A stretch of 64,000 nucleotides of DNA. Origin: a bacterium. GTDB taxonomy: Bacteria; Zhuqueibacterota; Zhuqueibacteria; Residuimicrobiales; Krinioviventaceae. The notes beneath the pieces are model-generated. The model was not told where the DNA came from. It saw nothing but the letters and a program-made list of their open reading frames with translations, and did not search any database. The position numbers were made by a program, and so were the translations under genes. The DNA lies in the NCBI GenBank assembly GCA_963675755.2, contig CAXXMD010000003.1, positions 1,088,001 to 1,152,000 on the forward strand. The letters run 5' to 3'. The first letter of the stretch is position 1. Each line of letters starts with the position of its first letter. Of this stretch, positions 15,850-63,905 are shown piece after piece.

Positions 15850-16500
15850 ACCACAGAGACACAATGGACACAGAGGAAAAAATTTCGTTAAATAGGGGCC
15901 ATCTTTTCTCTGTGCTCTCGGTGCCTCTGTGGTTAATTATCAAAACAATCACAATGTAACTGTTAGTATCAAAAAAGATTCCAAGAACAGATATACATTA
16001 CATTTTCAGATCGGCACAGAAATATCTCCTGATCAGTAAAATAACAATTTCAACATGACTGCTTTTTCTTTATCCGTGTCCATCCGTGTGGATCTGTGGG
16101 CAAATTGTTTTTATTCTTTTCCCACGGATCTGCACAGATTTTCACAGATAAAAAATTAATCATAAATTCAATTTAAAAAACTTACCACAGAGACACAAAG
16201 GACACAGAGGAAAAAATTTCGTTAAATAGGGGCCATCTTTTCTCTGTGCTCTCGGTGCCTGAGTGGTTAATTATCATTCCAATCATAATGTAACTGTTAG
16301 TATCAAAAAAGATTCCAAGAACAAATATACAGTAACATTTTCAGATCGGCACAGAAATATCTCCAGATCAGTAAAATAACAAGTTCCACCCGACTGCTTT
16401 TTCTTTATCCGTGTCCATCCGTGTCGATCTGTGGGCAAATTGTTTTTATTCTTTTCCCACGGATCTGCACAGATTTACACGGATGAAAACCTAATCATAA
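15850..16500. repeat. Imperfect tandem duplication (period ~334 bp); each copy holds two hairpins built from triple-CAC arms
   Basis: Copy 1 is 15850-16165 and copy 2 is 16184-16500, near-identical by eye. Arms at +15850, -15933, -16100, +16121, +16184, -16267, -16435, +16456. The ORF track has no ORF here. Confidence 0.92.
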
Positions 16501-54771: not shown

Positions 54772-54808
54772 ATTGGTGTAAATTTGTGTCATTCGTTTTT
54801 TTCGTGTT
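54772..54808 (-). repeat. Degenerate solo CAC-arm
   Basis: Minus strand reads AACACGAAAAAAACGAATGACACAAATTTACACCAAT (9-10 nt period). Confidence 0.4.
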
Positions 54809-60671: not shown

Positions 60672-60841
60672 AGAATCCTCAATATTTAAACATATAACAA
60701 GCACAAAGAAAAACAAAATCTTTTTATTTATAAATCAGTTTAATCAACTTTTGTTTAAATACGTTTTTCACATGATTTGAAAAAATGACAACCATGAAAT
60801 CATTATTAGAAATCAAACACCCAACCTGACTTTTTCTTTCT

Positions 60842-60917
60842 CTTCGTATCCTTCGTGACCTCTAGTTGTTTTTTTCTCAACCAAATCCAAACCACAAAGA
60901 ACACGAAAGACACGAAG
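60842..60917. repeat. Pair of inverted triple-CAC arms with a 22 nt spacer
   Basis: CTTCGTATCCTTCGTGACCTCTAGTTG (60842-60868) and ACCACAAAGAACACGAAAGACACGAAG (60891-60917). Confidence 0.85.
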
Positions 60918-60924
60918 AAAAAAA

Positions 60925-61296
60925 TTATAGAACATATCTCTTAATTCCATCTTTGAGCAGTTCTACATTAAAATTTATCAACAAACCCGTAGAAATCTTG
61001 GCAAGCTTCATATACGTTAAAAGTTGAGCTTGATGAATAGGCTTTATAAAATCAACCGATTTCAATTCTATAATTAACTTATTTTTTACCAATAAATCAA
61101 TTCTAAATCCACAATCCAATTTTACACCTTTATAAATAATTGGTATGGATTTCTGAACCTCAAATGGAATTTCCGCCAGGGCAAATTCTCTGGCTAAACA
61201 TTGTTCATAGGCAGATTCAAGCAATCCCGGACCCAATGTTTTATGTACATTTATAGCACAACCAATAACCTTGTTTGACAATGAATCAAAATTCAT
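60925..61296 (-). CDS. GxxExxY protein (PD-(D/E)XK nuclease-like fold)
   Basis: VHKTLGPGLLESAYE, RIDLLV...IIELKSV, HQAQLLTY, GLLINFN. Confidence 0.95.
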   Translation of the reverse strand: MNFDSLSNKVIGCAINVHKTLGPGLLESAYEQCLAREFALAEIPFEVQKSIPIIYKGVKLDCGFRIDLLVKNKLIIELKSVDFIKPIHQAQLLTYMKLAKISTGLLINFNVELLKDGIKRYVL

Positions 61297-61358
61297 AAAC
61301 TCCCCCTCTGAGTAATTATATTATACGATAGAAATCAAGTCTGATTGTTTTGCTTTTC

Positions 61359-61433
61359 CTTCGTGTTCTTCGTGAACTTTGTGGTTCTATAAACATTTAA
61401 TAATTGACCACGAAGGACACGAAAGTCACGAAG
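61359..61433. repeat. Pair of inverted triple-CAC arms with a 21 nt spacer
   Basis: CTTCGTGTTCTTCGTGAACTTTGTGGT (61359-61385) and ACCACGAAGGACACGAAAGTCACGAAG (61407-61433). Confidence 0.9.
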
Positions 61434-61440
61434 AATTCTT

Positions 61441-62121
61441 TTAAATAATTATATCAGATATGTCATAATTATAATCTTTAATCTTTATAAGATTTAAATT
61501 CCAAATAATAAATAAAACATCAAACTCAACTTTATTCCTTTTTAGTAATGTAAATAATTGTTCCATTCCTATCCTTATATCAATTGGAACGACAGGAACA
61601 TTACTATATATCAACAACCAATTGTATGTAAACAAATTATAATTCTTAAATTTTTCAGTCTTATTTATTATAGTTTCATGAATACACTTTGCCCAATCAA
61701 TTTCCGGTTGTATACCACATGAAGGCAAACCTATTAATCTTTTTTGGCTTGAATCCAAAGATTTGATTATCTCATCATTCTTTTTCGAATTATTTTTGTT
61801 ATTTAATGTAGGTTCCAAAATTCCTTGTGGATGCCTTTTCTTCAATATAGACAAAGCTCTTTTATATTGCTCTGTACTTGCTTCAGTAAATTCAATTCCA
61901 ATTGAATATCCATTAAACCTTATTTCAAAATCTGATTTGTCGTGATGAACAATTTCAAAAGGATAATTTATTATTGGACACTTTATTATATTTGCTAATA
62001 GACGTACTAATGCCCATTTTTCTACATCTTTCTTTTTGTTACCATTCTCATGGTTATGAATAAGTTTATATTTTTGAATAAATATATTCAAATCTTTATT
62101 ATTTATTAAATTGTATTCCAT
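61441..62121 (-). CDS. Very AT-rich hypothetical protein, possible restriction-endonuclease-like fold
   Basis: 226 aa ORF; DKSDFEI...IGIEFTE resembles a (P)D...E nuclease core. Confidence 0.55.
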   Translation of the reverse strand: MEYNLINNKDLNIFIQKYKLIHNHENGNKKKDVEKWALVRLLANIIKCPIINYPFEIVHHDKSDFEIRFNGYSIGIEFTEASTEQYKRALSILKKRHPQGILEPTLNNKNNSKKNDEIIKSLDSSQKRLIGLPSCGIQPEIDWAKCIHETIINKTEKFKNYNLFTYNWLLIYSNVPVVPIDIRIGMEQLFTLLKRNKVEFDVLFIIWNLNLIKIKDYNYDISDIII

Positions 62122-62166
62122 TTTTAAATATATAATTTTTTATCCATAAACATTGAAAAATATTTC

Positions 62167-62193
62167 CTTCGTGGTCTTCGTGACCTCTGTGGT
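62167..62193 (-). repeat. Triple-CAC arm
   Basis: Minus strand reads ACCACAGAGGTCACGAAGACCACGAAG. Confidence 0.85.
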
Positions 62194-62234
62194 TATCTTT
62201 GTTTTTTATAAAATCAAAATTTAAGCTGGAATTC

Positions 62235-62831
62235 CTATATCGAAAACACCAAACCTGTTTTGATTTTCAGAGTTGACTTTTTTTCATAATCATCTATATC
62301 ACGAACACCATATTCGGTATGAATACGAAATCCAATCGAATATTTGGAGACTTGCTTTTGAATGAGCATTGATCCCGAAATAAACCAAAAGGCTTCACCC
62401 CAATAACCATGTTCATCACTCCCGCATTTCTCTTGTGAATAGCCTAGTCCAACCTGTGGTAATCCGGTAATATCACCACTGACCGAAAATTGTTTCCCAA
62501 CCAATAATTCGTTTACATTATATGTATACAAGTAATCAACATCCCTGGTATAGTATAACTTTCCTTTCGCGTAATAATTCATAGTCGAAGCATCATGATA
62601 TGCTTTTTCTACACGGAAATGTACATCCAAGTGAGGAATATATACAGGGACTGAAAATCCGAACAAGAATGCACTGGAACCTACATCAAGCTCACAACCA
62701 GGATAAACGGTTATTGTAGGATTGGGTAAATAGCTCATTCCCATTTCAATATTTACAATTTCTGCCTTTAACGGTGAGATTAGAAATAACACAACAAAAC
62801 AACATACAACCAAAACTTTTTTTGAATACAT
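62235..62831 (-). CDS. Hypothetical secreted protein, probable small outer-membrane beta-barrel
   Basis: Signal peptide (LKA-EIVN), amphipathic strands, C-terminal KTGLVFSI; GGAGG RBS. Confidence 0.6.
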   Translation of the reverse strand: MYSKKVLVVCCFVVLFLISPLKAEIVNIEMGMSYLPNPTITVYPGCELDVGSSAFLFGFSVPVYIPHLDVHFRVEKAYHDASTMNYYAKGKLYYTRDVDYLYTYNVNELLVGKQFSVSGDITGLPQVGLGYSQEKCGSDEHGYWGEAFWFISGSMLIQKQVSKYSIGFRIHTEYGVRDIDDYEKKSTLKIKTGLVFSI

Positions 62832-62975
62832 AACTCCCTCCTGTTTGTACTGCTTTACAATAAAGACTTAAAATTTGGTATAACAATCCCCAAGTTTTAC
62901 TATTTACTAAATATATTATATAAACGGAATGAAACCAATAAATTTTTCAAAATATCTTAAAAAGTAAATTACTTT

Positions 62976-63106
62976 TACAAAGGATACGAAAGGCATACAG
63001 AAAAACAAACTCCATTTCTTGTCTGTCAGTTTAATCAACTACTAATTAACTTTTAAGCATCCAACCAGATTTTCTTTCTCTTCATGGTCTTTGTGTCCTC
63101 TATGGT
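62976..63106. repeat. Degenerate gene-less unit bounded by inverted triple-CAC arms
   Basis: TACAAAGGATACGAAAGGCATACAG (62976-63000) and CTTCATGGTCTTTGTGTCCTCTATGGT (63080-63106); the interior resembles 60701-60868. Confidence 0.65.
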
Positions 63107-63113
63107 TAGAAAT

Positions 63114-63175: not shown

Positions 63176-63772
63176 CTAAAACCCAAACACCAGTCCTGTT
63201 TGAACTTTGAATGTATATTCCCAATCCACATAATCCACATCTATCGCGCCCACTTGCAAATGTACTCGCAATCCTGCTGAAACAGCGCCTATTGGGACTT
63301 TATACAATAACGATCCGGAAACAAACCAATAATTCTCCTTAAAATATCCATCAGCTTCATTACCGCACTGCTCCATACTGTAACCGATACCCAACTGCGG
63401 CAGTGTTTTGATCTTTTCAAACAACATAAAAGGTCTTCCCATCAAAAGCTCTATTGCGTCATATTTAGAATTATAATCCACATCCATTTCTTTATATACG
63501 CTACCCCGGGACAGATAATCTTTTTGATAGGATTTATGAATACCCCGCTGCATCCGAATATGCGTATTAAAATAAGGAACGGGTAAAGGCACACTCAAAC
63601 CTAAAAGTATTCCACTGGACTCAATATGTACACCTCGCGTCTCTTTGAACAAACCATTGGTATTGGGCATGGTGCTCAAACCTGCTTCAAAATTGACAAT
63701 CTCTGCCTGTATGTGGGTTACGAGTGAAAAGAATATAACCGAACAGATAACGGCCGCTTTCCGTAATGTCAT
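63176..63772 (-). CDS. Paralog of 62235-62831, probable small outer-membrane beta-barrel
   Basis: Start ATG 63772 behind GGAGG; shares AEIVN, LPQ.G.GYS.E.CG, WF.SGS and TGLVF; terminal Phe. Confidence 0.65.
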   Translation of the reverse strand: MTLRKAAVICSVIFFSLVTHIQAEIVNFEAGLSTMPNTNGLFKETRGVHIESSGILLGLSVPLPVPYFNTHIRMQRGIHKSYQKDYLSRGSVYKEMDVDYNSKYDAIELLMGRPFMLFEKIKTLPQLGIGYSMEQCGNEADGYFKENYWFVSGSLLYKVPIGAVSAGLRVHLQVGAIDVDYVDWEYTFKVQTGLVFGF

Positions 63773-63905
63773 GTTTCCTCCTGCCTTGTCTGTAATCAAA
63801 TCCGATTGGGAGCACAAAAAATGGCTCCCAATCACTCTCTCATAAATGATATATAAAATTTAGACAAGGCAAAGCGGCTATTGCTTCCCCCGGTATTAGA
63901 AAAGA

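Follow-up and report, generated by a model that had tools for sequence, protein, structure and literature searches.

In systems built of repetitive extragenic palindromes (REPs) and REP-associated tyrosine transposases (RAYTs), a gene encoding a Y1 HUH transposase lies between inverted REPs, which are short palindromes. In integrons, the attC sites carry the core motif GTTRRRY (R''/L''-L'/R'). Of the small proteins that are annotated in bacteria but uncharacterised, the GxxExxY proteins are among the most frequent. In a 2012 survey of the superfamily the function of their family, PF13366, was given as 'Unknown'. The closest published relative of the element described here is the intervening sequence (IVS) of 23S rRNA that bears an open reading frame (ORF) in Coxiella burnetii and Leptospira (PMC4990558); in the Coxiella IVS, RNase III cuts a terminal stem of 28 bp, and the small ORF is preceded by three GACAGAT heptamers. 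The locus discussed here lies near the end of a 64-kb window (64,000 nucleotides of contig CAXXMD010000003.1, a bacterium of the phylum Zhuqueibacterota), and consists of a GxxExxY gene and an unrelated 226-aa gene, each placed between inverted arms made of three heptamers and arranged in a tandem array. We propose, with moderate confidence, that small selfish cassettes form a short tandem cluster here, in which the nuclease would act on the arms and the units carrying other cargo or no gene would be non-autonomous.

Each arm is a run of three heptamers, CACGAAG or a close variant, with a 9-nt period. The forward arm of the first complete unit (U1, 60891-60917, plus strand) reads ACCACAAAG-AA-CACGAAA-GA-CACGAAG, with CAC at positions 60893, 60902, and 60911. 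The reverse arm of U1 (61359-61385, minus strand), as well as the forward arm (61407-61433, plus strand) and the reverse arm (62167-62193, minus strand) of the second unit, U2, match it in build. These four 27-nt arms are clean, whereas the outer unit of the reverse arm that ends the preceding unit, U0 (60842-60868, minus strand), is degenerate and partly decayed. U1 is 495 bp long (60891-61385) and U2 is 787 bp long (61407-62193). Their ORFs, 60925-61296 and 61441-62121, are both on the minus strand, and in both units the stop codon is separated from the forward arm by 7 nt (60918-60924 and 61434-61440). Spacers of 22 nt (60869-60890) and 21 nt (61386-61406), recognised by reading and folding, separate the units and form the loops of two junction hairpins, with z-scores in single-stranded DNA folding of -2.5 and -4.3 on the plus strand and -3.6 and -3.4 on the minus strand. 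No pairing partner was found for the solo arm, folded as 62160-62240. The preliminary description of this locus had given the 27-nt arms with three CAC units and a 9-nt period, the lengths of the units and spacers, and the 7-nt gaps next to two co-oriented genes, all of which are exact in the sequence, and had expected the junctions to fold as hairpins, which they do.

The arms of U1, the forward arm of U2, and the reverse arm of U0 were seen both on reading and in pattern scans and a repeat search, and the reverse arm of U2 on reading and by comparison with a sister species. A scan of the window with the two-unit pattern CACGAAGNNCACGAAG, allowing up to 3 mismatches, yielded 14 matches, 10 of them within 60842-63095, compared with a mean of 2.65 and a maximum of 9 in the shuffled window; none of 100 shuffles got to 14. 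The repeat search recovered every arm pair and additional degenerate copies at 62974-63002, 63070-63102, and 60692-60720. With decayed arms at 62974-63108 and 60692-60720, the array therefore comprises four units, with one ordinary gene interrupting it. U0 starts with a degenerate remnant of a forward-type arm (60692-60720, plus strand), found by the repeat search, that adjoins the start of a sialidase gene and aligns with the intact forward arm of a gene-less unit of the sister species plus AAAAACAAAAT. Its gene-less interior (60721-60841) is ~83% identical to the interior of that unit and, in the repeat search, similar to the interior at 63003-63069. The latter belongs to U3 (62974-63108), a degenerate gene-less unit also found by the repeat search, which consists of a forward-type remnant (62974-63002), an interior, and a reverse arm (63070-63108), is placed downstream of a 219-aa gene, and has an intact counterpart in the sister species.

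The only ORF of U1 encodes a 123-aa protein that scores 146.6 bits against PF13366 (cut-off 22) and 153.4 bits against TIGR04256 (cut-off 35), far above both thresholds, so that its earlier identification as GxxExxY is secure; it belongs to no known transposase family. In an alignment of 7 GxxExxY copies from two genomes, residues G24, E27, Y30, D67, E77, and K79 are invariant, as is Q91, leaving the putative PD-(D/E)XK catalytic residues D67, E77, and K79 intact in U1. A weak match to the Cas4 core was also found (E 0.005). The 226-aa protein of U2 has no match in Pfam, NCBIfam, PADLOC, or PHROG, nothing meaningful was found when its profile was compared with PDB sequences, and a word search of 5.8 billion proteins returned only the protein itself. 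Judged by its homologues and their alignment, the ORF is a member of a real gene family, uncharacterised, with 384 representative clusters at E<=1e-3 and a typical length of ~240 aa, which is rare in the phylum (3 of 167 genomes). Residues P54, D64, E77, and K154 are invariant in 70 members and would be compatible with a nuclease-like PD...E...K site. Kinship between this family and GxxExxY was considered and rejected, as profile comparison gave a probability of 0.35%, with no relation detectable. Similarity between the 3' ends of the two ORFs is out of register with the arms, and for that reason it was read as chance in AT-rich sequence.

The source genome (G000, 6.48 Mb in 3 contigs, of which the third, C3, supplies the coordinates below) encodes 8 GxxExxY genes, and inverted heptamer arms bracket all 8 of them within 200 nt, always with a forward-type arm upstream and a reverse-type arm just past the stop codon. 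The heptamer varies from copy to copy, being CACGAAG, CACAGAG, CACGAAT, CACGGAT/CACAGAT, CGCAGAT, or CGCAGAG. With a strict pattern of three units C[AG]C[ACG][AG]A[AGT], separated by 1-3 nt, the genome contains 87 arms, versus 0 in a shuffled one (a single mononucleotide shuffle). Only 11 of the 87 are located within 250 nt of a GxxExxY gene and 76 are away from any. Arms are about ten times commoner in this genome than nuclease genes. When 2 mismatches are allowed, the 715 matches, compared with 336 in the shuffle, include too many false ones, and a general period-9 detector was swamped by coding and low-complexity repeats and is not a basis for counts. Close pairs of strict arms form 17 reverse-spacer-forward hairpins versus 6 in the forward-spacer-reverse arrangement. 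The genome has 25 adjacent forward...reverse pairs: 5 of them enclose a GxxExxY gene, in 6 a different single gene takes up 60% or more of the interval, and 10 have no gene and a gap of at most 200 nt. Other single genes are therefore found between the same arms in addition to that of U2, the example in the preliminary description.

The association extends far beyond this genus. In a cross-phylum scan with one genome per species, 80 loci encode proteins 60-73% identical to GxxExxY of the window. According to the record labels they represent at least 10 phyla, the labels being Verrucomicrobiota, Planctomycetota, Lentisphaerota, Omnitrophota, Desulfobacterota, Gamma- and Alphaproteobacteria, Bacteroidota, KSB1, Binatia, Chloroflexota, Bacillota, and Ignavibacteriales. 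An arm was called when at least 2 exact heptamers were present, forward upstream or reverse downstream, within flanks of 150 nt, which could be assessed in 77 loci. Correctly oriented arms are present on both sides in 52 of the 77, on at least one side in 67, and on neither in 10; matches in the wrong orientation numbered 9 and 14, and for 145 control placements within these loci the counts were 4, 3, and, for both arms together, 0. The enrichment of arms at GxxExxY genes, proposed earlier as a check, is therefore evident both within G000 and across phyla. By far the most frequent heptamer in the clade of the window protein is CACGAAG (81 of 110 units counted), and the arms usually adjoin the ORF, with a median distance of 9 nt before the protein match and 10 nt after it. 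Where long flanks were available (67 loci), the unit stands alone, without a further arm, in 23 and has additional arms, often in gene-less tandem units, in 39. Since arms flank the gene across phyla, including in solitary units, they travel with the gene, and the gene-plus-arms unit is a discrete package found over many phyla.

Comparison with the complete genome of a sister species of the same genus (G001), whose flanking regions are 87-93% identical to those of G000, reveals turnover of the units. At the site of the window G001 has neither the GxxExxY gene nor the 226-aa gene. Its sialidase and 198-aa genes are separated by one partial unit, a spacer, and one full unit, both units being gene-less and the full one comprising a forward arm, a 138-nt interior, and a reverse arm. 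Homology between the two genomes passes through the forward arm 60891-60917 and restarts at the reverse arm 62167-62193, whose orthologue in G001 is the reverse arm of its gene-less unit. In another region (C3:39225-42810), three CACGAAG-family hairpins separate genes for proteins of 223 and 626 aa; G001 lacks C3:39268-42826, comprising two arm-bounded single-gene units, and keeps one shortened hairpin. Arm-bounded units at C3:112929-115852 are also missing in G001, with one hairpin kept. At site #7, between identical outer CACGGAT arms, G000 has a GxxExxY gene and a gene-less unit, and G001 a small lipoprotein-like ORF. The second unit of locus #8 keeps the leader and first codons of GxxExxY, followed by a foreign gene for a 349-aa secreted protein; the locus is gene-less in G001, where a copy of the 349-aa gene (83% nucleotide identity) is found elsewhere without arms. 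Of 7 single-gene units examined that have genes other than GxxExxY, 5 are missing at the orthologous site in G001, 1 is present in both species, and 1 (253 aa) has no clear call. The alignments of G000 with G001 show that interiors between two arms differ as whole blocks: an interior is there, missing, or substituted by another, and the breakpoints fall at the arms. The preliminary description had asked where indels break in relatives, and the presence/absence and cargo differences between these two genomes end at or next to arms. The cargo genes have a G+C content of 24.7-31% (24.7% in the 226-aa gene), compared with a genome mean of 39.5%, and only 0.9-8% of genome windows are as low; acquisition is therefore favoured. 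Separately, a 627-nt stretch of G000 (C3:2625713-2626340) is replaced by ~5 nt in G001.

Occupied and empty sites are found in other genera as well. In one Methylobacter genome a 491-nt unit is located between two overlapping genes, and 4 congeners provide a clean, uninterrupted empty site. The insert is flanked on both sides by a duplicated 8-bp sequence, ATGAATAA, and reaches past the arms by 16 and 29 nt. The carA-carB spacer of a Magnetospirillum-like genus is found in three states, namely empty with a terminator (6 genomes read), with a CACGAAG unit carrying GxxExxY (the query and 3 relatives), and with gene-less CACGAAT units of two sizes; this site is one that has been occupied repeatedly. 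In a large planctomycete genome (the metagenome-assembled genome G200), several copies are ~90% identical over exactly the unit, GxxExxY internal-deletion derivatives keep both arms and both ends of the ORF, and a conserved linker of ~85 nt joins tandem units. In the search for empty sites, the relatives of Bowmanella were too divergent and a Schlesneria-labelled genus had no syntenic flanks.

The composition of the arms bears on what is being recognised. Period-9 triples are present on either side in 33 loci. Paired arms of these units are identical at 0.991 of heptamer positions and at 0.530 of positions in the 2-nt spacers; with shuffled arm partners these values are 0.920 and 0.444, and the highest spacer value in any shuffle was 56.7%. 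The six heptamer differences between paired arms comprise 2 wobble-compatible changes, 3 mismatches, and 1 transversion, with no G-U bias. As read from these alignments, the arm pattern is what is expected of repeated recognition sites and not of a helix kept by pairing alone. Because the heptamers are 99% alike while the spacers are no more alike than in shuffled pairs, we infer that the nuclease recognises the heptamers as sequence and not the stem alone, and the PD-(D/E)XK nuclease probably recognises the heptamers.

The same values weigh on an explanation in which the arms act solely at the level of RNA, forming a transcript stem for RNase III processing, stability, or translational control, with GxxExxY having another job and the gene-less copies being decayed remnants. 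Several observations agree with it. Whole units U1 and U2 fold with the arms as the terminal stem (z -5.1 and -4.5), the arms abut start and stop codons, and the purine-rich heptamers could be a ribosome-binding site. In 33 of 61 loci the GxxExxY unit points the same way as both its neighbours, and in 44 the same way as the upstream one. A promoter scan of the array gave 18 hits versus 15.5 expected, which is no excess, and no terminator was found within the array by the accompanying terminator scan. Excision by RNase III of an IVS that bears an ORF and contains heptamers has, moreover, been published (PMC4990558). Against this, the inter-heptamer spacers are not complementary, the heptamer differences lack the bias toward G-U-compatible changes, and the same heptamer is kept across phyla (0.92 between loci), more than a stem needs. 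The 76 strict arms that are far from any GxxExxY gene, many of them paired in reverse-spacer-forward hairpins with nothing inside, do not fit it either, and block replacement at the arms is left unexplained. We regard an exclusively RNA-level function as unlikely, although a second, RNA-level role for the arms is plausible.

A further explanation holds that the arms are ordinary REP-like repeats spread by another enzyme, such as a Y1/IS200-type transposase, or by none, that recombination accounts for the differences between genomes, and that GxxExxY is a passenger. G000 does have 4 Y1_Tnp genes, most arms are gene-less, their alternating orientation resembles arrays of bacterial interspersed mosaic elements (BIMEs), and the sister genome keeps exactly one hairpin at two loci, as it would after recombination between direct repeats. 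Yet none of the 4 Y1_Tnp genes has an arm within 400 nt, whereas all 8 GxxExxY genes have arms within 200 nt, and the 23 solitary gene-plus-arms units among 67 cross-phylum loci, with no other arm nearby, indicate that the arms arrive with the gene. The type of arm also follows the protein tree. On a tree of 85 proteins (123 columns), the arm label changes 15 times versus 21.2 in shuffles, none of 500 of which was as low, and a deep, well-supported split separates proteins with ...AT arms from those with ...AG arms; the tree built from this alignment shows arm type tracking the protein. Together with the foreign-looking G+C content of the cargo, these results make a passenger role for GxxExxY quite improbable.

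An integron-like arrangement, in which the junction hairpins would be attC-like sites for a tyrosine recombinase and the units promoterless cassettes, is hardly credible, since the co-oriented single-gene units with imperfect palindromic junctions, and cassette content that differs between congeners, are set against a genome whose best match to the integron integrase model TIGR02249 scores 81.4 bits versus a cut-off of 265 (with none in the window), 4 recombinase-like loci of which none has a triple-unit arm within 1.5 kb and one has a single weak two-unit match, junctions (60842-60917 and 61359-61433) that contain no GTTRRRY core, units that are solitary in many genomes, and arms that are arrays of direct heptamers, so that the attC analogy drawn earlier has to be given up.

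The explanation that we favour, a cluster of selfish cassettes, could operate as follows. U1 would be the autonomous form, which carries the GxxExxY nuclease gene only, with its catalytic residues intact; U2 would consist of the same arms around an unrelated low-G+C gene, and U0 and the decayed U3 would be gene-less forms. The nuclease would recognise heptamer arrays and break DNA at or beside the arms, and repair or recombination with the arms as shared sequence might then copy or swap the interior. Gene-less, internal-deletion, and cargo units would be non-autonomous passengers dependent on the nuclease, and new units landing beside old ones would create head-to-tail arrays. Homing-type maintenance by a transposon-borne nuclease has a published precedent in TnpB (PMC10690162). 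By analogy with the 23S rRNA IVS, pairing of the two arms in the sense transcript may enclose the unit in a long stem, and cutting of this stem by RNase III could make insertion into transcribed gene strings tolerable.

We can speculate further that heptamer arms and GxxExxY form an integrase-free system of gene capture and exchange, in which any DNA between two arms could become a cassette to be copied, swapped, or stacked; this extension is doubtful, and we advance it tentatively. If it is true, a 0.5-kb selfish element doubles as a vehicle for single accessory genes within and between genomes, the accessory genes here being mostly low-G+C genes for secreted proteins or lipoproteins, as well as a second nuclease-like gene. 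The preliminary description had proposed a mobile or gene-capture cassette system analogous to RAYT/REP or to integrons. Arm enrichment, block differences, and the presence of other cargo speak for that proposal; its integron part has not survived, and the parallel with RAYT/REP holds for the layout and not for the enzyme, which has a PD-(D/E)XK fold and not that of a Y1 HUH transposase.

A number of observations weigh against the selfish-cassette explanation. The link between nuclease and arms, as it stands in these sequences, is one of association and co-inheritance, such as any tightly linked package gives. The differences between G000 and G001 lack polarity, as homology by itself is compatible with insertion in G000 or with deletion in G001, and recombinational deletion between directly repeated hairpins explains the two loci at which a single hairpin is kept. 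Sites #3 and #4 are complex, with breakpoints away from arms, and at one GxxExxY site specific to G001 the G000 genome has an unrelated ORF and no arms. A cargo unit encoding a 338-aa protein (C3:2104901-2106061) is common to both species, and a full-length homologue of the 226-aa gene in genome G161 has no arms. Units with genes other than GxxExxY are rare in the 80 cross-phylum loci, and the carrying of cargo may therefore be confined to this genus. Methylobacter is the only case in which a target duplication was seen; in the Magnetospirillum-like and G203 genera none is visible, and the whole intergenic spacer is replaced. Finally, the control for the strict arms was one shuffle of mononucleotides, and the protein tree is mostly unresolved, with kin sharing arm labels.

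Several additional features of the window and its genome are of note. The array is adjoined by tandem paralogous genes (62235-62831 and 63176-63835, encoding 198 and 219 aa) that have signal peptides and match no family; an arm-bearing unit comes after each, and a clear terminator after the second only (63156-63117, minus strand). At 15852-16494 a composite intergenic module with no gene is present as a 335-nt tandem duplication. The module comprises a CACAGAG unit (forward arm, 32 nt, reverse arm), then a CACGGAT hairpin (reverse arm, 24 nt, forward arm), so that two arm families are found side by side. A weak arm remnant of the CACAAAT/CACGAAT type is located at 54772-54806. Elsewhere in G000, a four-helix-bundle gene of TIGR02436, the family of rRNA-IVS ORFs, lies between inverted arms with the word AGCTATN and a period of ~8 (C3:33515-33838), and a second TIGR02436 gene (C3:1660490) has no such arms. 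In metagenome contigs from three runs of one study, joints across the array (for example, from 61433 to 62167) are covered by just 20-27 nt of arm and derive from other arm copies, so that they carry no information on excision or circular forms. The summed contig depth rises from ~10 to 156 over the junction arms (61324-61450), which therefore have many further copies in that community.

The layout of the arms gives GxxExxY proteins a concrete candidate substrate, the heptamer arms themselves. If the nuclease acts on them, the unit would be a very small (~0.5 kb) mobile element based on a PD-(D/E)XK enzyme and not on a known transposase or recombinase, present in many phyla, and it would link the long-unexplained ORF-bearing rRNA IVS to a wider class of cassettes. 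In this genus, moreover, arrays have the same arms around genes that differ between sister species, which would then be a new route of small-scale gene flux and a possible source of compact sequence-specific DNA tools. A search of full-text literature for the arm motifs and for REP/heptamer descriptions, supplementary files being outside its reach, found no publication that describes a GxxExxY gene-plus-arms element, in agreement with the earlier impression that the system had no formal description. The package looks like an undescribed selfish element that can carry other genes.

Among known systems, integron arrays are similar in their co-oriented head-to-tail single-gene units, palindromic junctions, variable content, and foreign-looking cargo, but an integrase, an attI or Pc platform, and attC cores are all missing from the cassettes, which also occur singly, at any intergenic site. 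Transposons with terminal inverted repeats and their miniature derivatives share with the cassettes terminal inverted repeats accompanied by subterminal ones, derivatives that keep the ends and lose the middle, and, in the single case of Methylobacter, an 8-bp flanking duplication; unlike them, the cassettes encode no known transposase family, the duplication was seen once, and the insert continued 16 and 29 nt past the arms. REP/RAYT systems, with their REPINs (hairpin-forming REP doublets) and BIMEs, also share features with the cassettes: inverted copies of a dispersed repeat native to the genome surround an enzyme gene, hairpin-forming doublets without a gene are far more numerous than the gene, and several variant families per genome each have their own gene copy and form alternating arrays. 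They differ in that the cassette enzyme is of the PD-(D/E)XK type, the arms are three direct heptamers, and the package has moved across phyla. The ORF-bearing IVS (PMC4990558) is situated inside helix 45 of 23S rRNA, has an S23p four-helix-bundle ORF, and has excision of RNA by RNase III as its sole demonstrated activity, whereas the cassettes are intergenic, with protein genes as neighbours, contain a gene for a PD-(D/E)XK nuclease or different cargo, and form tandem arrays with many gene-less copies. Nevertheless, both are units of ~430-500 nt with one small ORF, closed into a stem by terminal inverted repeats of ~27-28 bp, and both have three heptamers in the arm that precedes the ORF (GACAGAT in the IVS, and CACAGAT or CACGAAG-type in the cassettes). 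The IVS, too, is regarded as a selfish element of unknown origin, and in G000 a gene of its own four-helix-bundle family, TIGR02436, is likewise found between periodic inverted arms.

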